A stretch of 64,000 bases of DNA from an uncultured Eubacteriales bacterium. GTDB lineage: Bacteria; Bacillota; Clostridia; Oscillospirales; CAG-272. Below, piece after piece: positions 13,801 to 63,262 of this stretch. The first letter of the stretch is position 1, and each line of letters starts with the position of its first letter. The position numbers and the translations under genes are program-made. The notes under the pieces were generated by a model that searched no databases, was not told where the DNA came from, and saw only the letters and a program-made list of their open reading frames with translations. The stretch lies in the NCBI GenBank assembly GCA_948467545.1, contig CAOKER010000001.1, positions 287,477 through 351,476 on the forward strand. The letters run 5' to 3'.

Positions 13801-16800
13801 TGTGCTGCCGTCGCTGTAAAAGGCCGTAATGATCATGCCGGAAGCATCAAATGAATCGCCTTCATAGTATCTGAGCTTGTCCGGATTCTTAGTAACCGAA
13901 ATAGAAATAATATAAGGGGTATCTTTGTCAAGCTCAGATTCGCCGCCGATAAGTTCAAGAGCGGAGGCCAGCGACGAATAATTGTTTACGTAACGGCGCT
14001 CGTCTTCGTGAACTGAGCGGAATACGGAGAGCGCTGATTTAAGCTTTTCCTTATAATCGGGTTCGGAAGGATCCGGCATGGAAGCTATAGCCGAGACGGC
14101 GCTGTTCATGGCGCCCTTTTCTTCTGCGGTCCATTCTCCTCGCATATCGTAAAGCGAACGCATTCCGTTTTCAAGCCTCCAGTACGAAACAAGCGCATAT
14201 GTCGCCTGATCGTTCGCCATCGAATTAAATCCTGAATTTAAAACGTGACAGAACCCTCCGTCGGAGAGACGGAAACTCAGAATACCGTCTAAAAGTGTTT
14301 TGCCGTTCGATGTTATAAATCGTTCATCCTCCGCCGGATCGATTCCGAGCGAGCAGAGTGCTACAACGACCTGAGAAATACTTTCAACATTATTGGTATT
14401 CCACGAGGTAAAGCCTCCGCTGCTGTTCATCATTGATCCGAGGCGATCGAGAGCTTCATCTATGCAGTTACGGACGGTTTTGGAGAGCTTCAGACCGCTG
14501 TTTTCGTTTGTATATGTATAAATAGTATCATCATTGTAATATGGAGCAAGCGCTTGAATTGCCATTGCCGTAATGTCGACGTCCGAGCTGCTTCCGTAGC
14601 CTCCGAGTACCCAGCCGCCGTATTCGTTTCCGTTTACGCCGTCGGTAAGCTGCATTTTCAGAATTTCGGTAATAAAGGTTTCACGGGAATATTTTGCGTC
14701 TGAAGGTACTTCATACATACCCGTATCCATGGCTATAAGTCCCCAAATCCAGCCGTTTATTCCCTGAGTACCGGGACCTGCTTTAAGCGCATTGTTGTAA
14801 CTTCCGTCCGCAATAAGATCAATCGGGCTTCCGTTGTATGTACCGAAACTTACAGGATTGCCGCCGAGCGCTGCGATTGAGACGACTGCACGGTGCCATT
14901 CGGTTGCCTTGGCGCTGTGCAGAATTCCGCCGTTATCCGAATAAGTCTTTTCAATATAGGATTTCATTGCGGCAAGATAATCATCGTATCCTGTTCCGTC
15001 ATCAATCATATAGTAATATGCACCGGAATCATAGTATCCGAAGCGTCCCATTGCAAGCGCCATCCAATCGGTTTCGGTGGAACTTGCTCCCGACATATAC
15101 CCCTCGTTTCCGAGAAGTGTTCCGCTGATATCCGAATGTTTTTTCGTGCTGGCGACAGCTGCTTTGATGTATTCGGCAAGCTGCGCGGAAAGCTCTGTAC
15201 TTTCTGTGAATGCGGGGCGGACGGGTATGTCCGTGCAGACAGAGCTTTCCCAAAGCAGTATGGGATTGCCTTGGCTGTCGGTAAACGCGGAGCCGAGAAA
15301 AGAGGCGGAGATGCTTTCGGTTTCGCTTATGCCTGTCTTATTGTCTGTTCCCGTTCCTTTGATATAATAGCAGCCGCTGTTTGTTCCCCTGCTTGCCCCG
15401 ATTACCGCACCGATGTTGTTTGCATTGCCTGCGGAATCTATTACCATGCCTGCATTATAGCAGTTTGTAAGCGTCGGAGAAGCCGCCTTGTGCCCTCCGG
15501 TTATGCCGCCGACTGTAGCGGGACCGGTAACGGGGCCTGTATTATAGCAGTTTTCCACCGTACCAGCTCTCCAATGCTGTCCTGTAACTCCGCCGATGTA
15601 TCCTGTAGTGCCCGTAACCGAACCGGAGTTATAGCATCCGCTGACAGTACAGTCTCCGTTGACCGAGCCTGCTATACCTCCGACGTTGGCGCTGCCGGAT
15701 ACAGTTGCTTCATTGCCGCAGTTTGTAATTTTTCCTGCTGTGAGTTTGCCGACTATTCCCGCGACGTCTCCGGAGCCTGCCGAGCTTCCTTTGACCACAA
15801 GATTTCTTACGGTACCGCCGTCTACATTTCCGAAGAAACCGAGTGATGATCCTCCGTTGATATAAAGTCCGCTTACTGTGTGATAGTTACCGTCAAATAT
15901 TCCTTTAAAGGGTGACGCCGACGTTCCGACGGGAGTCCACGGAGAGTTCTCTCCGCCGAGATATACATTTACATCCAGACGTATGAGCTTCTCCTCGTAC
16001 GTGTTTCCTTCGTTTACGCTTACGGCAAATGCCTTCAGCTCTTCATAGCTTCCGATTATTACATCCGGCATTTTTGTCTGCCATGCAAGAATCGGATATC
16101 CGCGGTTGAGATTGTCATCGTCCGCTTTAAATCCGATACCGAGAGCTGCCGCGTCGAGAGTGTCGGTCTCGGCTATACCGTTCTTGCTGTCGGTTCCGGT
16201 GCCTCTCAGGTAAAAGCAGCCGCTGTTTGTCCCTCTGCTTGCACCGATTACCGCGCCGATGTTGTTGGCATTGCCTGCGGAATCTATTACCATGCCTGCA
16301 TTATAGCAGTTTGTAAGAGTCGGAGAAGCTGCCTTGTGACCTCCGGCTACGCCGCCGACTGTAGCGGGACCGGTGACGACGCCTGTATTATAGCAGTTTT
16401 CCACTGTTCCCGCTCTCCAATGCTGTCCTGTAACTCCGCCGATGTAGCCTGTGGTGCCCGTAACCGAACCGGAGTTATAGCATCCAATGACAGAAGATGC
16501 GCCGCCGACGTACCCTACAACGCCGCCTACGGCGCTTGAGCCGTTTACGTCTGCGTTGCTGCCGCAGTTTTTAATATTTCCTTCAGAGAGATATCCGACG
16601 ATACCTGCGACATTTCCGCTTCCTGTAACACTTCCTTTTACTGTTACACTTTCAACGGTACCGTTTTCAACATATCCGAAAAGTCCGAGATTTTTTCCCG
16701 AACTGTCGGAGATGAAAAGACCGCTGATAATATGGTTTTCTCCGTCAAAGGTTCCTTTAAAGCGGTTGTTTTCATTTCCTATAGGTGTCCACGGAGAGCT

Positions 16801-17528: not shown

Positions 17529-17555
17529 CTCACCAAAGCTGTGTTAAACCTGAAA

Positions 17556-17790
17556 AGAAACGGCAGGTATCCTGACTTATGATTCAGCGAATTATCATAT
17601 TATTAATTATATAATTTATTAATTACACGATAAAATTAATCATACAATGGATTCACACAGGGCGGCGCCTTCTCAGGACAGATTTTTCCCAATGGCTTTT
17701 GCGCCCCTATCTCGTCAAATACAGTAATGGCGGTTGTTCCGGATTCGAACCGGATTCCCTTTTTATCTACTCAGTATACAACTTTTCAAA
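17556..17790 (-). promoter_or_regulatory. Cobalamin (AdoCbl) riboswitch
   Basis: Minus strand reads AGGGAATCCGGTTCGAATCCGGAACAACCGCCATTACTGTA ... GCCATTGGG ... GAGAAGGCG ... and the B12 box AAGTCAGGATACCTGCCGTT (plus 17561..17578). Order and spacing match the consensus, apart from an AT-rich ~75-nt insertion before the B12 box. Confidence 0.8.
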
Positions 17791-17825
17791 CCGTATCTTC
17801 TAATATCAGTTATTAAATTTTTACC

Positions 17826-18041: not shown

Positions 18042-18090
18042 GCGGCGATTTTGCGGCAATTATGCGGCAATTTGCGGTGATTTTGCGGCG
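18042..18090 (+). repeat. Five helically phased (10-11 bp) TGCGGC repeats in the 5' leader
   Basis: aGCGGCgattt TGCGGCaatta TGCGGCaatt TGCGGTgattt TGCGGCg. GCGG starts at 18042, 18053, 18064, 18074, 18085. Confidence 0.8.
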
Positions 18091-23255: not shown

Positions 23256-23304
23256 AGTATTTTTGCGGGACTTGGCGGTATACATTTTTATATATAAAGC
23301 AAAC

Positions 23305-23412
23305 TGTCCGCCGCTTCTTTCGCGTTTCGCGGCGGGCCGGCCGAGCTTTTTGGGACGGCGGTGCAATCCGCCGCTGAATTTCTAAATGACGGCGCTTTGC
23401 GTCTTATTAAAA
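23305..23412 (+). repeat. Dispersed intergenic GC-rich repeat, copy A (licC-licA spacer)
   Basis: CCGCCGC..GCGGCGGG CCGGCCGAGCTTTTT GGGACGGCGG..CCGCCGC .. GACGGCGCTTTGCGTCTTATTAAAA. Shares modular order with the copies listed below. Confidence 0.65.
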
Positions 23413-25672: not shown

Positions 25673-25750
25673 GGTGGGTGTAGCTCAGTTGATTAGAGCG
25701 CCAGGTTGTGGCCCTGGAGGTCGTGGGTTTGAGCCCCATCATTCACCCCA
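25673..25750 (+). tRNA. tRNA-His (anticodon GTG) with encoded G-1 and CCA
   Basis: Manual fold: acceptor GTGGGTG/CATTCAC, D arm GCTCAGTTGATTAGAGC, anticodon stem CCAGG/CCTGG with loop TTGTGGC, T arm GTGGG-TTTGAGC-CCCAT. An extra 5' G pairs with discriminator C, which is His-specific. 3' CCA present. Confidence 0.9.
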
Positions 25751-25843: not shown

Positions 25844-25850
25844 GCTTTAG

Positions 25851-25958
25851 TTTGAAATTATGCTAGGATTTGAGGTTATGATTGAGTTTAAGGCTATACT
25901 TGAGTTTAAGGTTCAGCTTGGATTTGGGGTTATGATTGAGTTTAAGGTTATGCTTGGA
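25851..25958 (+). repeat. Six degenerate 18-bp tandem repeats (TTTRAGGTTATGMTTGRG-like)
   Basis: Units start at 25851, 25869, 25887, 25905, 25923, 25941. Intergenic, between tRNA-His and the Na/Pi transporter gene. Confidence 0.85.
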
Positions 25959-27771: not shown

Positions 27772-27988
27772 AGATAAAAAACTGCTCCTTGTTGAATGGT
27801 TGTAGTTAAGCAATATTTTATGTTAAAAACATTTTACATATGTAATAAGTGTATCATGTTTTCATCAAATCTATTATCGGATCTTCGTAAAATTCTTGTA
27901 AAGCGGTATTTTACTTTGTATTAAAAGTGAGTGAAATAGGTTATGAAATTTTTCGGGGCAAATCGTCTGTTATAGCTGAAAGCAAGAT

Positions 27989-28084
27989 ACCCGCCCTTTT
28001 TCGGAGGCTTCTGCCGACTTTCTTCAGCGGCGTTAAATTCGCCGTCCCGCCGCCTTGTCACGTTACTTTTTGCTTTATTGAATC
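27989..28084 (+). repeat. Dispersed intergenic repeat, copy G
   Basis: CCCGCCCTTTTTCGGAGGCTTCTGCCGACTTTCTT..CCGCCTTGTCACG..TTTGCTTTATTGAATC. Confidence 0.65.
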
Positions 28085-30496: not shown

Positions 30497-30577
30497 TTTT
30501 AAAATTATAGCCGTTCCTTTCTTCTGATTTTATAATTATAAGCAAGGTGTCACGCTCTCCGGTGTCCCGCACTTGGT

Positions 30578-30673
30578 ACCCCGCACCTTCGGCGGCAGGT
30601 CCTGCAGGTATTTTTCGGTGGCTTGCAATCCGCTGCCGAATCAAGCTTGACGGCGCTTTGCGCATTATTAAAA
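30578..30673 (+). repeat. Dispersed intergenic repeat, copy B
   Basis: ..GGCGGCAGGTCCTGCAGGTATTTTTCGGTGGCTTGCAATCCGCTGCCGAATCAAGCTTGACGGCGCTTTGCGCATTATTAAAA. The 3' half is nearly identical to copy A. Confidence 0.65.
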
Positions 30674-30914: not shown

Positions 30915-30944
30915 ATACAGGAGCAGACAGAATCTGCAATATTA

Positions 30945-31054
30945 CAGAGTAGAACGTGCGCGTTAAGTGCCGCGGGGACGGGGAGTTTGTCCTGCGGACG
31001 AAATTACCGGTATTGAAACCGGGAAATGCGGTGTACGTTTCGCATCCCGCTGTG
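30945..31054 (+). promoter_or_regulatory. THF (tetrahydrofolate) riboswitch
   Basis: CAGAGTAG..CGCGTTAAGTG..GGGGA..GGACGAA..GGGAAATGCGGTGTACG..GCATCCCGCTGTG. This matches the conserved THF-I core (AGAGUAG, GCGUUAAGUG, ACGAA, GCGGUG, GCAUCCGCU) and sits upstream of a FolT-like gene. Confidence 0.85.
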
Positions 31055-31146: not shown

Positions 31147-33093
31147 ATGACAGATTTATCGGATGACATGACAAATGAGAAAGCAGGAGGAGAACGGACT
31201 GCGGCGGATGATAAGTTCGGTGGTGCAGTGAAGGTGAAAAGGGAGCTTTTCGCGGAGACGGCGGAGGTTCAGAGTGTCGGCAATATGCGGTGTTTGAATG
31301 ACGCCGAAAATCATGAAACGGAAGCAGCGGCAGAAACGTCGGATATGGCGAGTAAAGCGAATATGGCTGGCACAGCGGATATGGCCGGTACAGCGAATAT
31401 GGCAGATACAGCGGATATGGTGGATACGGCAGGTGAGGCGGGTATGACAGAATCGTGCAGTGCCGAAACGGGAACTTTCGGAGTGAGTTTGGTATCTGGG
31501 AAAACGGTAGAGGATGACAAGCAGGCTTCGGGGGCTGACGGGGAACAGGTACTTTTCAGCAAAGCCAGAATGTCGGAAGCTGCGGAAACGAATTCGGCGG
31601 CAAACAATCAAACGCTGACGGATGAAAATGTTTCGGATCAAGATGATGCGGAAACAAGGGCTGACAGTTTGTATGATCGAAAGGATCAAACCGGTTCAAA
31701 AGAAGCGGCCTGTGCAGAAAACGGAGGCGGAGAAGATAAAAAAGCAAAGAAAAATTCACGACTTGTTAAAAGCTCGTTGCTTAAAATGACGCTCTGTGCG
31801 GTTTTTATCGGACTTGCAGTAGTCTCGAAGCTTTTTTTGACGATTAAGATTCCGTTGCTTGGAGCGGACGGTCTGCGTATCAGCCTTGCGGGAGTGTTTA
31901 CAGCGTTTCCCGCATTTATCTGCGGTCCGATATACGGCGGTATAGCAAGCGCCGCGTCTGATTTTATAGGCTATCTTATAAAGCCAGACGGAGCATATAT
32001 TCCTTGGCTTACATTGACAGCATTTGCCGGAGGCGTACTCAAAGGTATCATCTGGCGGCTGTTTGTCCGCAGACCGAGAAAAAGCGTAAGAATTCTGGCG
32101 CTCTCTGCATTTGTAATTGTGGGGGCTTTGGGGCTGACGGTTCATATAAGTTTAATTTCGGACGGAATCCTCAACGATATTACGGCGTCTCAATCGCAGC
32201 TTGCAACGAGGGGCAGAATGGAATCTATTGAGAAAAATGCGGTTTCCGGAGCGGTAGTAAATCTTGCAAAATATAATAATGATGTTTTTACTGTAACTGC
32301 GGTTTCCGACAGTGAGACGATTGTTCTGCCGTCAAAGGCTGATCTTGACGGATATGAACGTCCCGTTACAAAAATCGGCGGCGGAGCTTTCTCGTCCTGT
32401 GAGGATGTGAAAAGAATATACATACCGTCCGTATATACTTCTATAGATAAGGAAGCTTTTACCGGAATTGATTTTTCGGAAATTGTAATCGTTTCTGAAA
32501 AGAGTTCTTCGGCGGAGAAATTTGCGTCTCAGAACGGAATATCTTTTGAAGAAGGCACGTGCGAAGAGCTTACGCTTAAGCTTGTTTCCGTATACAGCGA
32601 CGGGGGTTATTCAGTTTCGGCACTTCAGAGCGGCGGCTTTACAGTCAAATCGAGCGACGCTTACAGAAAAAATTTATCCGGATATATTTCATTTACAACC
32701 GTCGGACTGGAGCTTATCGGGCTTATAGGTATTCTCTATTTTGTTCTTGAGGCCGCCGTGTCCCGATATGAAGCTTCCGGAACCGACAGCAGAGATAAGG
32801 ACGGAAAGCAAAGGAAGAAAATACTCGGCCATATTGTAAACCCTCAGCTTGTAAAGATTATGCTCTCTACTGTAATATCGGGACTTATTGTCACGACTGT
32901 CAACACTAAGATACTGCAGGCTGTTCTCGCTGTATACAGCGGCAGATCGTTTATCATTCTCTGGATTCCGAGATTTATCGAGGAGCTTGCGGTATGCATG
33001 GTACAGTCGGTGCTGATTTCGGTCCTTTACGGCGTTTATATCGGTACGGTCGGCAAAAAAACTCAGCGTATACTTGACGGCAAGGGGGATTAA
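31147..33093 (+). CDS. Chimeric FolT-like ECF S-component: ~215-aa acidic low-complexity N-terminus, S-component TM core, inserted leucine-rich-repeat (BspA-type) domain
   Basis: Start set to MTDLSDD, because the ATG at 31099 lies inside the terminator T-tract. TM core LCAVFIGLAVVSKLF..LRISLAGVFTAFPAFICGPIYGGIASAASDFIGYLIK resembles folate-family S components. Insert VTKIGGGAFSSCEDVKRIYIPSVYTSIDKEAFTG is a BspA-like LRR. More TM helices at the C-terminus. Confidence 0.7.
   Translation: MTDLSDDMTNEKAGGERTAADDKFGGAVKVKRELFAETAEVQSVGNMRCLNDAENHETEAAAETSDMASKANMAGTADMAGTANMADTADMVDTAGEAGMTESCSAETGTFGVSLVSGKTVEDDKQASGADGEQVLFSKARMSEAAETNSAANNQTLTDENVSDQDDAETRADSLYDRKDQTGSKEAACAENGGGEDKKAKKNSRLVKSSLLKMTLCAVFIGLAVVSKLFLTIKIPLLGADGLRISLAGVFTAFPAFICGPIYGGIASAASDFIGYLIKPDGAYIPWLTLTAFAGGVLKGIIWRLFVRRPRKSVRILALSAFVIVGALGLTVHISLISDGILNDITASQSQLATRGRMESIEKNAVSGAVVNLAKYNNDVFTVTAVSDSETIVLPSKADLDGYERPVTKIGGGAFSSCEDVKRIYIPSVYTSIDKEAFTGIDFSEIVIVSEKSSSAEKFASQNGISFEEGTCEELTLKLVSVYSDGGYSVSALQSGGFTVKSSDAYRKNLSGYISFTTVGLELIGLIGILYFVLEAAVSRYEASGTDSRDKDGKQRKKILGHIVNPQLVKIMLSTVISGLIVTTVNTKILQAVLAVYSGRSFIILWIPRFIEELAVCMVQSVLISVLYGVYIGTVGKKTQRILDGKGD
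31339..31446 (+). repeat. Six in-frame 18-bp tandem repeats encoding (A/S)(D/N)MA(G/D)T hexapeptides
   Basis: Units start at 31339, 31357, 31375, 31393, 31411, 31429. Peptide SDMASKANMAGTADMAGTANMADTADMVDTAGEAGM. Confidence 0.85.
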
Positions 33094-47250: not shown

Positions 47251-47268
47251 ACATAGTTTTTTAATAAA

Positions 47269-47311
47269 ATCTCCCCATGATAATGTAATTGTCATGGGGA
47301 GATTGATTTTT
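47269..47311. terminator. Strong hairpin terminator after carB-dapF
   Basis: ATCTCCCCATGA-loop-TCATGGGGAGAT (12 bp) followed by TGATTTTT. An A-run precedes it, so it may act on either strand. Confidence 0.85.
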
Positions 47312-47335
47312 AAAAATCAGGATATTCTTCGCCTT

Positions 47336-47432
47336 TGTTACCGAGGCTTCCGCCGTTTTTTCAATTGCGGGACAGTTCGTCACTGAACCGCCTTGTGACG
47401 GCGAGTTGCTCCTTATCGAAAGGTTATACATT
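47336..47432 (+). repeat. Dispersed intergenic repeat, copy J
   Basis: TTCGCCTTTGTTACCGAGGCTTCCGCCGTTTTTT..CCGCCTTGTGACGGCGAGTTGCTCCTTATCGAAAGG. Closest to copy G. Confidence 0.6.
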
Positions 47433-48536: not shown

Positions 48537-48869
48537 ATATTCACCGTGCCTTTGAAGCTCAAAGGCTTCCTTTCAAGTAACATCCGCTCAGTGTCGGCAT
48601 CAGTAAAATTTCCGGGAAAGGTTTGTTTCCTTTATATATAATAAGGATGGCGGCTATGAAAACCACAAAAAAATAATAAAAACCGAAAAACGGCTTGAAA
48701 TAGATTATTTTGTGTAATATAATATATAGAGAGCGGATTCTTCAAATTGCTTAGCCTCATTGCCGAGAGGGCAAAGAGCGCCTATAACATGATATGCCTG
48801 CAATGGTTTTCGTGTTCACGCTGAATTTGTCTTTCTTTAAAGGGCGAATATAACTAAAAGCAAAATGTA

Positions 48870-48966
48870 TCCGCCCGTTTTGCGGCGGGTTCTGCCGAAT
48901 TTTTAGGACGGCGTGCCGGTTTTTCCGTCCGATGTCTTAATACGGAGCTTTGCACCTTATTGAATT
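48870..48966 (+). repeat. Dispersed intergenic repeat, copy C (exemplar)
   Basis: TCCGCCCGTTTTGCGGCGGGTTCTGCCGAATTTTTAGGACGGCGTGCCGGTTTTTCCGTCCGATGTCTTAATACGGAGCTTTGCACCTTATTGAATTG. Confidence 0.7.
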
Positions 48967-51369: not shown

Positions 51370-51406
51370 TAAAAAAACGTTGATGCATGTAATTCTGAAA
51401 CACATA

Positions 51407-51432
51407 TAGGGGGCTTTCTGCCCTTATTGAAT
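51407..51432 (+). repeat. 3'-module-only fragment of the dispersed repeat (copy F)
   Basis: GGGGGCTTTCTGCCCTTATTGAATTT. This is the hairpin plus the CTTATTGAAT tail only. Confidence 0.4.
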
Positions 51433-52695: not shown

Positions 52696-53437
52696 CGGGA
52701 CGGATGGGGAAATTATATTTCCCTGCGATTTTGACAGCTCTCTTCTTAAAGAGGTACGTGATAATTATCTTAGGGTAGTATATAATGTTAATAATACTTG
52801 TGAGCGCTTGGGAATAAAATATCCTGTAAAGATTTCGGCTGCTACCAAAACGGTTCCGCCGTCGGTAATAAATTATGCCGCTTCGCTTGGTCTTGACTGT
52901 ATCGGTGAAAACCGCGTTCAGGAATTTCTTGATAAAGAAAGTTTTCTTGACGGCAGTATAGAACGGCATTTTATCGGTACGCTCCAGCGCAATAAAGTAA
53001 AATATATCATCGGAAAGGTATCGCTTATTCAGTCTGTGGACAGCGTGCCGCTTGCGCTTGAAATAAGCAAACGCGCCGAAAGCAGCGGTTATGTTCAGGA
53101 TATTCTTGCTGAAATTAATATTGGAAGAGAGAGCGGAAAAGGCGGTTTTTTGCCGGAAAACTTAGAAAATTCTCTTGATATGATGTCGGAATTTCATGGA
53201 ATAAGACTTTGCGGAATAATGACAATAGCGCCTTATTGCGATAAAAAAGATGATTATCGAAAATTTTTTGCCGAAACTTATCAAATATTACTTGACATAG
53301 CGGCAAAAAAAATGCATAATATAGAGGTACCCTTATTGTCTATGGGTATGAGTGATAATTATGAGATTGCAATTGAGTATGGGGCTAATATAATCAGACC
53401 GGGTACGGCTATCTTCGGAAAGAGACATTATAATTGA
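52673..53437 (+). CDS. yggS: YggS/YlmE-family pyridoxal-phosphate homeostasis protein
   Basis: AATKTVPP..GENRVQE..HFIGTLQRNKVKY..LSMGMSDNYEIAIEYGANIIRPGTAIFG. Conserved position before sepF. Confidence 0.9.
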   Translation: MTEKYCRDGTDGEIIFPCDFDSSLLKEVRDNYLRVVYNVNNTCERLGIKYPVKISAATKTVPPSVINYAASLGLDCIGENRVQEFLDKESFLDGSIERHFIGTLQRNKVKYIIGKVSLIQSVDSVPLALEISKRAESSGYVQDILAEINIGRESGKGGFLPENLENSLDMMSEFHGIRLCGIMTIAPYCDKKDDYRKFFAETYQILLDIAAKKMHNIEVPLLSMGMSDNYEIAIEYGANIIRPGTAIFGKRHYN

Positions 53438-53448
53438 ACGGAGTTGTC

Positions 53449-53543
53449 TTCCGCGTCTATGGCGGAGGGATCCGATTCGTTTTTAGGCGTAGGTACAGTC
53501 CGTCGCCGAAGCGCCGAATATGGCGGGCCGCGCCTTATTGAAT
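53449..53543 (+). repeat. Dispersed intergenic repeat, copy E (yggS-sepF spacer)
   Basis: TCCGCGTCTATGGCGGAGGGATCCGATTCGTTTTTAGGCG..CGCCGAAGCGCCGAATATGGCGGGCCGCGCCTTATTGAATT. Confidence 0.6.
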
Positions 53544-57052: not shown

Positions 57053-57185
57053 GAGTTTGTTACAAACAAATAAAAATTATTGCCGGCTGCTTTCCGCCGA
57101 GAGCTGTGCGGCATTTCAAAGGGGATATACCTCGGCTTGCTTATGCAAAATATCTTAGATTTTCGGCGGAGAAACGGAATGCAAA

Positions 57186-61645: not shown

Positions 61646-61735
61646 TTCGGTAAATTTATTTTTAATGTATCTGACGGTGGTCTGAGACAAAAAGAAAGAT
61701 GTTCTTGCTTTCACATCGACAGATTTCCACCGGCC

Positions 61736-61810
61736 TTTTTCAGTGGCGGGACAATATACTGCCGAAGCTGCCCATGCGGCTTTTTGCACCTTTTTGAAAA
61801 CAAACTTTGA
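61736..61810 (+). repeat. Dispersed intergenic repeat, shortened copy K
   Basis: CCACCGGCCTTTTTCAGTGGCGGGAC..CTGCCGAAGC..GCGGCTTTTTGCACCTTTTTGAAAAC. Confidence 0.5.
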
Positions 61811-63007: not shown

Positions 63008-63167
63008 TTACGAGAATGGTATTGCCCGAAAGATTAATTATACTGTACTGTTTTTTAGATTTTTGTTTGAGTGTTAAAACCGAATTTTATTTTTCTGCAG
63101 AGTTATGATAAGAAAAATATTTTTTGAGTTGAGGCTATGCTTCTGATTATAACTGAAATCAGGATGC

Positions 63168-63262
63168 TCTCGCCTTTGGCGCGGCGGGTTCCACGTTTTT
63201 TCGTCGGAGTGATGGTCAGATGCTTAATCGCCTCATGAAGACATTTTGCGTCTTATTGAATA
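63168..63262 (+). repeat. Dispersed intergenic repeat, copy D (nagA-metG spacer)
   Basis: CTCGCCTTTGGCGCGGCGGGTTCCACGTTTTTTCGTCGG..GAAGACATTTTGCGTCTTATTGAATATTG. Confidence 0.6.

Follow-up and report, generated by a model that had tools for sequence, protein, structure and literature searches.

In IS608 of Helicobacter pylori, an insertion sequence (IS) of the IS200/IS605 group, cleavage occurs 3′ of a TTAC tetranucleotide located 19 nt before the left hairpin and at a TCAA tetranucleotide located 10 nt past the right hairpin; the donor is rejoined without gain or loss of sequence, and the pairing between guide and target is non-canonical (PMC3201880). Transposition of IS200/IS605 elements uses the lagging-strand template (PMC5027513). 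In ISGst of Geobacillus stearothermophilus, the transposon-adjacent motif (TAM) and the transposon-encoded motif (TEM) are alike, DNA guides are used, and gene-less copies occur that resemble palindrome-associated transposable elements (PATEs), which have been reported often to encode omega-RNAs (PMC10055086). PATEs were defined as a class in PMC7290912, where it is also noted that the two hairpins are not always alike. Here we describe a family of short intergenic repeats in a stretch of 64 kb (the window) from an uncultured Eubacteriales bacterium (contig CAOKER010000001.1), with the copy at 48854..48964 on the + strand, in the queA leader, as the exemplar. These repeats are probably gene-less non-autonomous mobile elements of ~110-150 nt that belong to the IS200/IS605 'peel-and-paste' type and are PATE-like in kind, with TATAA as the putative TAM and TTGAA as the putative TEM.

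Eight related copies, each on the + strand, are present in the window, and the similarity is plain by eye in eight of the nine stretches listed by the original prediction, which had counted at least eight or nine copies of a GC-rich repeat. A profile hidden Markov model (HMM) built from the eight window copies raised only the same eight above noise in a scan of the window. A stricter profile HMM was built from 51 copies on unrelated metagenome contigs, with the window sequence excluded; it recovered all eight on the + strand with E values of 4e-8 to 0.022, and no other match in the 64 kb fell below E = 1. The degenerate copies suspected near 18080, 25395 and 57080 found no support in any profile model, and the stretch at 57080 is a conserved flank upstream of ileS rather than a copy of the element. 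The eight copies lie where they had been located, but their true start is ~20 nt upstream of the earlier one in every case, with (T)TATAAC followed by TGAAAGCAAGATG in the first alignment. The conserved tail is CTTATTGAA; the T that had been given as its last base belongs to the flank. The refined coordinates of the copies include the 5-nt TATAA-like motif on the left, which for the exemplar is given separately.

The boundaries of the element were defined by the information content of 51 distinct full copies. On the left, ATAAC had ~2 bits, the T before it 1.1 bits, and positions further upstream ~0.1-0.5 bits; on the right, the value was 2 bits through TTGAA and ~0.1 bit past it. The five positions 5′ of the first element base were T, A, T, A and A in 41, 50, 47, 51 and 50 of the 51 copies, respectively. 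The two ends, TATAAC... and ...CTTATTGAA, are not inverted repeats of each other; the sole end-proximal inverted repeat, helix P1, is terminal on the left and internal on the right. No direct repeat is common to the flanks of the 51 copies, and the target-site duplications that were to be looked for at the copy boundaries are absent there.

Filled and empty sites were compared in the dapA-queA-miaA-sepF region of the window and of three related sequences, L003, L004 and L182, which differ in site occupancy. Site C is filled in L003, where CCTATCTATAA is followed by the element, from C to CTTATTGAA, and then by TAAGGATG; the window and L182 have CCTTTATATATAA joined to TAAGGATG. Site A is filled in the window (GCGAATATAA, the element from C to TTGAA, then TTGCAAAGTCATACTG) and empty in L182 and L004 (GCGAATTTAATTTATTAATTATACTG), and the empty allele has the same 26-nt length as the window sequence minus the element. 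Site E, in the spacer between queA and miaA, is filled in L004 and L182 (CACATATTTATAG, the element from C to TTGAA, then AAGAATAATATTTG) and empty in the window (TACATATTAATAAAATAAATATTTTG). Site D (L004 8276) and the carB-dapA region were left out because their alignments were too diverged. The empty sites carry TATAA, TTTAA or AATAA, and in three of three sites the empty allele consists of this T(A/T)TAA-like motif plus the right flank. Therefore, the mobile DNA extends from the C after TATAA to TTGAA and is inserted without duplication. The target pentanucleotide of the exemplar, TATAA at 48849..48853 on the + strand, was placed by the information-content profile; since empty sites keep T(A/T)TAA joined to the right flank, it lies outside the mobile DNA. 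In addition, a head-to-tail tandem was found in L109, in which TTTAA precedes copy 1 and the TTGAA of copy 1 is followed by CCGTGAACAG, the start of copy 2 (junction CCGTGAAC-copy 2). Copy 2 begins at the same C, directly after the TTGAA of copy 1, and has no TATAA of its own.

Decay of the element was seen at site B, upstream of sepF, where the copy is orthologous in four genomes and has been eroded by internal deletion: the window has it at full length, L182 and L004 lack internal parts of it, and only the head is left in L003. Solo right ends occur at two independent loci, L103 4328-4358 and L175 5427-5457 (with duplicates in L170, L206 and L185), in the form of TATAA, overlapping a stop codon, followed directly by TGAC, the hairpin and TTATTGAA. 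In the full element, too, TGAC is immediately preceded by TTGAA, and for this reason the 25-nt right-end unit may be cut out and moved alone, in the manner of a repetitive extragenic palindromic (REP) sequence. Deletion derivatives and solo right ends abutting TATAA are as expected of decaying or aberrantly processed copies.

The general layout of the element, following the flanking TATAA, is a head beginning with C, hairpin P2, hairpin P3, in part of the family P4, then TTGAATGAC, hairpin P5 and TTATTGAA. The module order noticed earlier in the window is real, its modules corresponding to P2, the T-rich linker, P3, and P5 with the tail. There are two size classes, ~115 nt (the window type) and ~140 nt. 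The left half of the 140-nt consensus reads TATAA, C, the P1 5′ strand, ATG, P2 (CCCCCGCC, loop, GGCGG(C)GGG) and P3 (TTCAGYGG, (T)ACAAT in the loop, CCRCTGAA), and the right half reads P4 (GGGGC TAAC GCCCC), the P1 3′ strand, TTGAATGAC, P5 (GGGGC NNN GCCCC) and TTATTGAA. In the 115-nt type, AAAAG in the head pairs with CTTTT 3′ of P2, and P4 is absent. Subterminal hairpins are found at both ends of the top strand, P2 near the left and P5 near the right. The distance from the left motif to the foot of P2 is 10-14 nt, and that from the foot of P5 to the right end is 8 nt. The sequences conserved 5′ of these hairpins are (G/T)ATGT before P2 and AATGAC before P5, which have ATG in common. In the 140-nt type, for example L133 3490-3633, the P1 3′ strand (AGTCGTTC) can also pair with the invariant GAATGAC beside P5; this alternative hairpin rivals the end-joining helix P1 and is the one chosen by DNA folding. 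Three to six tandem units of ~17-18 nt (GTGTAAAGGCGTTCGC-like) form an internal expansion between head and P2 in L101 (~700-800), L198, L117/L145, L182 (5220-5400) and L004 (8300-8350).

The helices are supported by covariation, which had been named beforehand as a check on the proposed hairpins. Across 27 copies of the 140-nt class, paired cells made up 92%, compared with 40-53% when the partners were slid by 1-3 columns, and both sides had changed in 12 of the 28 pairs. RNAalifold assigned 20 pairs to the 115-nt type, five window copies included, and nine of these showed compensatory changes. P1 was GTGAAC/GTTCAC, ACGACT/AGTCGT or CACGACC/GGTCGTG depending on the subfamily, and GCAAAG/CTTTGC in a viral copy. 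The single P5 pair left free by the search pattern was G-C in 75 cases, A-T in 10, C-G in 6 and T-A in 1 (n = 113). P2 and P5 both covary. Across the covarying helices there were 13 G.T pairs and 17 A.C mismatches. There is therefore no sign of pairing selected in the RNA of one strand, and the pattern fits a structure at the DNA level. Intact metagenome copies folded as single-stranded DNA far better than shuffled sequences (z = −4.6, −7.5 and −11.2). On the other hand, the window copies folded no better than shuffles (z = −0.2 to −0.8), have a per-column identity of 53%, and in several cases lack the left motif or a hairpin. Judged from their sequences, the window copies are old relics that have accumulated mutations and have probably lost their mobility.

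All copies had been said to share one orientation. This holds inside the window (8/8 on the + strand) but not beyond it: a ninth copy, on the minus strand, was found 2.7 kb past the right edge (L083 14651-14785 = 66651-66785) between tatD and a radical-SAM gene, which gives eight + copies against one − copy over ~93 kb of this contig. The same-strand rule is therefore a bias and not absolute. All 19 listed sequences with two or more copies have a single orientation; when a region assembled from several samples is counted once, these reduce to about a dozen independent cases. Among 60 loci of 4 kb or more, the element strand was the G-rich one in 42, and the G-rich strand is predicted to be the lagging-strand template. 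The upstream neighbour gene was co-directional in 55 cases and opposite in 30, and the downstream neighbour in 56 and 45, respectively; eleven copies are antisense to both neighbours. The GC skew of the window + strand is positive from 18 to 64 kb and ~0 where the genes are on the − strand. This suggests that the window + strand is leading-strand sequence, i.e. the lagging-strand template, with GC skew being confounded by gene direction. The copy at 27971 keeps the + orientation between two minus-strand genes; thus, orientation follows something larger than the local gene, if not strictly.

The window lies within a 180-kb metagenome scaffold (ENA ERZ28566519, scaffold_60). Its gene content is ordinary Firmicute housekeeping, including carAB, dapA, queA, miaA, the sepF-yggT-ylmH-divIVA cluster, ileS, lspA and metG. 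The closest species representatives are uncultured 'Clostridiales' gut metagenome-assembled genomes (MAGs), L003 (91% QueA identity) and L004 (90%), after which QueA identity drops to 76% and then to 62% or less. Among 80 QueA loci of named relatives, full-model matches were obtained only in these two MAGs; L005 (76% QueA identity) gave a match to the left end only, and the more distant Lachnospiraceae and Oscillospiraceae loci of this set gave no family match. A scan of JGI/ENA metagenome contigs with the right-end pattern yielded 120 loci, mainly from gut samples. Iterated profile searches then gave 146 matches, nearly all from these 120 loci; 119 matches are distinct, and of these 61 are full length. 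The family is frequent among uncultured gut Clostridia and also includes deletion derivatives of 78-106 nt. Four IMG/VR viral contigs (L208-L211) carry full copies or left-end fragments inside predicted phage genomes, and phages are a possible vehicle for the spread of the family between hosts. No family match was found in PLSDB plasmids or INPHARED phages by blastn with an intact copy as the query.

Neither the window copies nor the intact metagenome copies matched Rfam 15 at the gathering threshold, and at E ≤ 10 only far-sub-threshold chance matches were obtained. This is consistent with the earlier statement that the repeat is not a riboswitch or a REP, BOX or ERIC element. A literature search on the tail sequence, the TATAA TAM and PATEs in Clostridia found no paper describing the family. 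The repeat family is previously uncatalogued, as had been proposed, within these literature and database searches. What is not new is the kind of element, since it can be assigned to the known IS200/IS605-type PATEs.

The PATE-like assignment is favoured because the ends are not inverted repeats, no target is duplicated, and insertion occurs 3′ of a fixed AT-rich pentanucleotide that is kept in the empty site. It is further favoured by the similar pentanucleotide at the right terminus, by the subterminal hairpins with a left spacing longer than the right one, by the tandem at a reused target, and by the strand-biased orientation. A non-autonomous mobile element was among the roles considered in the original prediction, and this role is the one supported by the insertion polymorphism between sister genomes, the tandem, the truncated derivatives, the sharp boundaries and the large multi-genome family. 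The proposed mechanism, with its enzyme, its single-stranded intermediate and its link to replication, is modelled by analogy on IS608 and ISGst. In this model, a transposase of the Y1 HUH type (TnpA), encoded at another site, would bind the subterminal hairpins of the top (+) strand while this strand is single-stranded at the replication fork, and the long-range helix P1, formed by the head and a downstream segment, would bring both ends together. At the left, TnpA would then cut 3′ of the flanking T(A/T)TAA, and at the right 3′ of the TTGAA that terminates the element itself, so that a single-stranded circle would be excised and the donor resealed without a scar. The circle would be pasted 3′ of another T(A/T)TAA in a strand-specific manner, without target duplication.

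Several observations weigh against this assignment. Neither a cognate tnpA nor a cognate tnpB was detected in the window and 20 kb of additional flank, no transposase was found by Pfam in multi-locus open reading frame (ORF) clusters from 760 kb of element-bearing metagenome loci, and a crude HUH/Tyr regular expression run over 2.29 Mb found no transposase. No left-end/right-end pair at a distance of 0.3-3 kb encloses a transposase-sized insert, and no transposase is present among the ORFs beside right-end-only matches. ORFs located 3′ of a left end on viral contigs were considered as the parent transposase and proved to be phage genes. These searches sampled a small fraction of any one genome; therefore, the missing transposase weakens the assignment without refuting it. 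The left (P2) and right (P5) hairpins are unlike, no convincing guide tetranucleotides were found, and no simple complementarity to TATAA or TTGAA was found 5′ of the hairpins. The empty alleles belong to sister species, with proteins ~10% diverged, rather than to the same strain, and the motif at two of the three empty sites is TTTAA or AATAA instead of TATAA. In addition, the orientation bias is partial (42/60), and the conserved core of P1, P3 and P4 goes beyond what TnpA is known to require for recognition.

This covarying core (P1, P3 with its (T)ACAAT loop, and P4) might encode a function of its own, although we regard this as a doubtful extension of the assignment. It could act as an omega-RNA-like guide for a TnpB/IscB-type nuclease supplied in trans, in which case the RNA would be read out across the right end into the flanking DNA, or it could be the substrate of an undescribed HUH enzyme that also moves single P5 units. 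If either were true, uncultured gut Clostridia would harbour, in this family, a new lineage of mobile elements that are RNA-guided or move as single strands.

Movement by another duplication-free mechanism is unlikely. Such a mechanism could be REP/RAYT-like, with a domesticated Y1 transposase, TnpA_REP, acting on single hairpins, rolling-circle transposition of the IS91 type, or site-specific recombination by an IS110-type or other recombinase. It would leave the same gross signature, i.e. hairpins, strand bias and a conserved flanking oligonucleotide but neither terminal inverted repeats nor a target duplication, and it gains from the fact that no IS200/IS605 parent was found. The solo P5 units beside TATAA at two independent loci and in the window are also reminiscent of REP sequences. 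IS91 targets the tetranucleotides GTTC/CTTG, which counts against the rolling-circle version. REP sequences commonly form inverted doublets (REPIN, or bacterial interspersed mosaic element, BIME), whereas no inverted doublet was seen at any family locus, the solo P5 units being direct remnants of the same polarity, and the element has two different ends and four to five helices. Furthermore, the similar pentanucleotides at the left flank and the right end, together with a scarless joint that keeps the motif, are the pattern of IS200/IS605 elements (PMC3201880, PMC10055086).

A family of structured RNAs (small RNAs, 5′ leaders, or terminator/stability elements), with copies kept as regulators of the neighbouring genes, had also been considered, and we now judge it improbable. 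The helices covary, several window copies lie in probable 5′ leaders after sigma-70-like promoters or just past terminators, P5 with TTATT resembles a weak intrinsic terminator, the upstream gene is more often co-directional (55 vs 30), and PATEs are reported often to encode omega-RNAs (PMC10055086). However, G.T pairs are not enriched over A.C mismatches, no Rfam family matches even at permissive thresholds, and the copies occur in every orientation relative to genes, eleven of them antisense to both neighbours, with associated genes that are unrelated housekeeping genes. Presence or absence varies between sister genomes at the same intergenic region, the orthologous copies decay by deletion, and the window copies fold no better than shuffles. 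A classical miniature inverted-repeat transposable element derived from a DDE transposon would fit the size, intergenic location, AT-rich insertion sites and high copy number, but it is very improbable, because TATAAC... and ...CTTATTGAA, the two ends, do not form an inverted repeat, P1 reaches the terminus only at the left, the 51 copies have no flanking direct repeats, and filled and empty sites differ by exactly the element.

Further readings were rejected. Integron attC sites have the complementary ends R″ (RYYYAAC) and R′ (GTTRRRY) and form arrays of promoterless cassettes; the tail here is CTTATTGAA, not GTTRRRY, and the intervening genes are housekeeping genes (queA, ileS and metG). A promoter, with TATAAC as the −10 and TTGAAT as the −35 sequence, does not fit because TATAAC is without the invariant final T, the upstream −35 regions are not conserved, and the spacing is wrong. 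A terminal inverted repeat formed through the GCAAA near both ends has 9 of 20 matches and is not supported across subfamilies. Long direct repeats, suggested by 'head-like' sequence past the tail, were dismissed because the downstream flanks hold ~0.1 bit, the sole true case being the L109 tandem. Finally, a hammerhead-like CUGAUG motif is not followed by the required core and has no Rfam match.

The exemplar element in the queA leader (111 nt, head CTAAAAGCAAAATG) comprises P2 at 48871-48875/48884-48888, followed by the T-rich linker, P3 at 48906-48911/48925-48930, P5 at 48944-48948/48952-48956, and the terminal TTGAA at 48960-48964, all on the + strand. Its site is empty in L003, L004 and L182, and it lies between a good sigma-70-like promoter (48695-48723) and queA. 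The other seven window copies are likewise on the + strand. The copy at 23293..23411, between a choline-kinase-like gene and an EamA transporter gene, has a short head (TATAA followed by AGCAAAC) and the tail TTATTAAA. The copy at 27971..28082, between minus-strand Na/Pi-cotransporter/PhoU and histidine kinase genes, has the motif TATAG and a decayed P5. The copy at 30537..30672 is located in the divergent spacer between a response regulator gene (−) and a tetrahydrofolate (THF) riboswitch with an ECF transporter gene (+); it carries an additional insert of ~25 nt past the head and ends in ATTATTAAA. The copy at 47311..47420 (47316-47420 without the motif) directly follows the carB terminator, a 17-bp stem at 47268-47304 plus a T-run, and has a degenerate left motif (TAAAA) and the tail TTATCGAA. 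The copy at 53429..53542, in the yggS/sepF spacer, is the one orthologous in four genomes, and its element proper (53434-53542) lies between a promoter-like site (53367-53394) and sepF. The most decayed copy, at 61687..61798 between a pseudouridine synthase gene and an amidohydrolase gene, has lost the left motif and P2 and has the tail TTTTTGAA; the last copy, at 63148..63260, lies between the amidohydrolase gene and metG.

The ninth stretch listed by the original prediction, a 3′ fragment at 51407..51432, is weak by HMM (E = 1.4-2.8). It was redefined as 51405..51431 (+ strand, spacer between miaA and the next gene), where TATAG is followed by GGGGCTTTCTGCCCTTATTGAA, that is, directly by the hairpin GGGGC TTTCT GCCC and then TTATTGAA. 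This 22-nt right-end remnant is plausible as a solo right end, because it has the same architecture as the solo right ends in L103 and L175. The profile search found no family copy at 1-23 kb of the window or in the 10 kb to the left of it. This copy-free region of ~33 kb (L212 12000-21923 plus window 1-23000) contains mostly minus-strand and long genes with few intergenic spacers, and it is followed by nine copies in the next 50 kb. Copies in leaders and after terminators are in keeping with a TATAA target, since this pentanucleotide forms the core of the −10 box and occurs frequently in AT-rich DNA past terminators. For this reason, leaders and 3′ ends are favoured landing sites, and an insertion there could alter expression.

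Other features were noted in the window. A cobalamin riboswitch (81 bits) at 17545-17810 on the − strand lies upstream of a minus-strand block consisting of a small HNH_repeat ORF, a 2064-aa protein without a Pfam domain, three unannotated ORFs, and then DUF4430, CbiQ, ABC and ECF-S genes; this is possibly a B12-uptake locus with giant accessory proteins. The ORF for the 2064-aa protein contains two segments of ~300 nt that are 81% identical and 846 nt apart (15261-16406), and more repeats at a spacing of ~850 nt indicate an internally repetitive surface-type protein. The THF riboswitch (67 bits) at 30943-31054 precedes a gene for a fused ECF-S/LRR_5 protein, which contains an 18-nt (6-codon) tandem repeat at 31329-31445. 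At 25845-25952, near a 33-aa ORF, there are four to six non-coding tandem units of 18 nt (CTTGAGTTTAAGGTTATG-like), ~100 nt downstream of a tRNA gene (25674-25747). Part of the stretch at 57080-57150 upstream of ileS (TTTCCGCCGAGAGCTG to CGGCAT) is conserved in L004, which suggests an ileS leader element; this stretch gave no match to a T-box or any other Rfam family (best E = 0.24).

The repeat litters the intergenic DNA of poorly known gut Clostridia, at ~1 copy per 8 kb in part of the contig. Exact boundaries keep such GC-rich islands from being misread as riboswitches, small RNAs or terminators, and the family is usable as a marker for strain typing and for the direction of replication in MAGs. 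It also points to a single-strand transposase with a TATAA target, possibly with a TnpB/omega-RNA partner.

Among described repeats, the pneumococcal BOX and RUP and the Bacillus cereus bcr1 elements are intergenic repeats of ~100-150 nt with a stable predicted structure, often co-transcribed with their neighbours. The present family is like them in size, intergenic location and predicted structure. However, RUP and bcr1 are characterised by inverted ends and/or target duplications, BOX has a modular build, and the family has no sequence similarity to these elements and no Rfam match. With REP, BIME and REPIN sequences, which are linked to the REP-associated tyrosine transposase (RAYT, TnpA_REP), the family shares high-copy intergenic hairpin elements tied, in the family putatively, to Y1 HUH chemistry, and solo hairpin units. 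REP sequences, however, are single palindromes of 20-40 nt with a 5′ GTAG-type tetranucleotide, mostly in inverted pairs, whereas the family has a unit of 110-150 nt with two distinct ends and a fixed polarity.

The family also resembles IS608. In both, the target motif is external to the element and precedes the left hairpin, the cleavage motif is internal and follows the right hairpin by a few nucleotides, and the donor joint is scarless; the orientation is biased towards the lagging-strand template in IS608 and may be so in the family. IS608 differs in its tetranucleotides TTAC and TCAA, spacings of 19 and 10 nt, identical hairpins, and possession of tnpA and tnpB, whereas the family has the pentanucleotides TATAA and TTGAA, spacings of 10-14 and 8 nt, and no genes. 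The family is likewise comparable with PATEs, the gene-less IS200/IS605 derivatives of, for example, Haloquadratum, G. stearothermophilus (ISGst) and Halanaerobium. It departs from them in that it has no known parent IS or TnpA with matching ends, its two hairpins differ from each other, there is an additional conserved core (the closing helix P1, P3 and P4), the host belongs to uncultured gut Clostridia, and any link to an omega-RNA or TnpB would be hypothetical. Nevertheless, like PATEs, it is short and gene-less, has subterminal hairpins without terminal inverted repeats or target duplication, sits 3′ of a conserved AT-rich pentanucleotide with a terminal motif that resembles the target motif, and is multi-copy, strand-biased and subject to decay by internal deletion.

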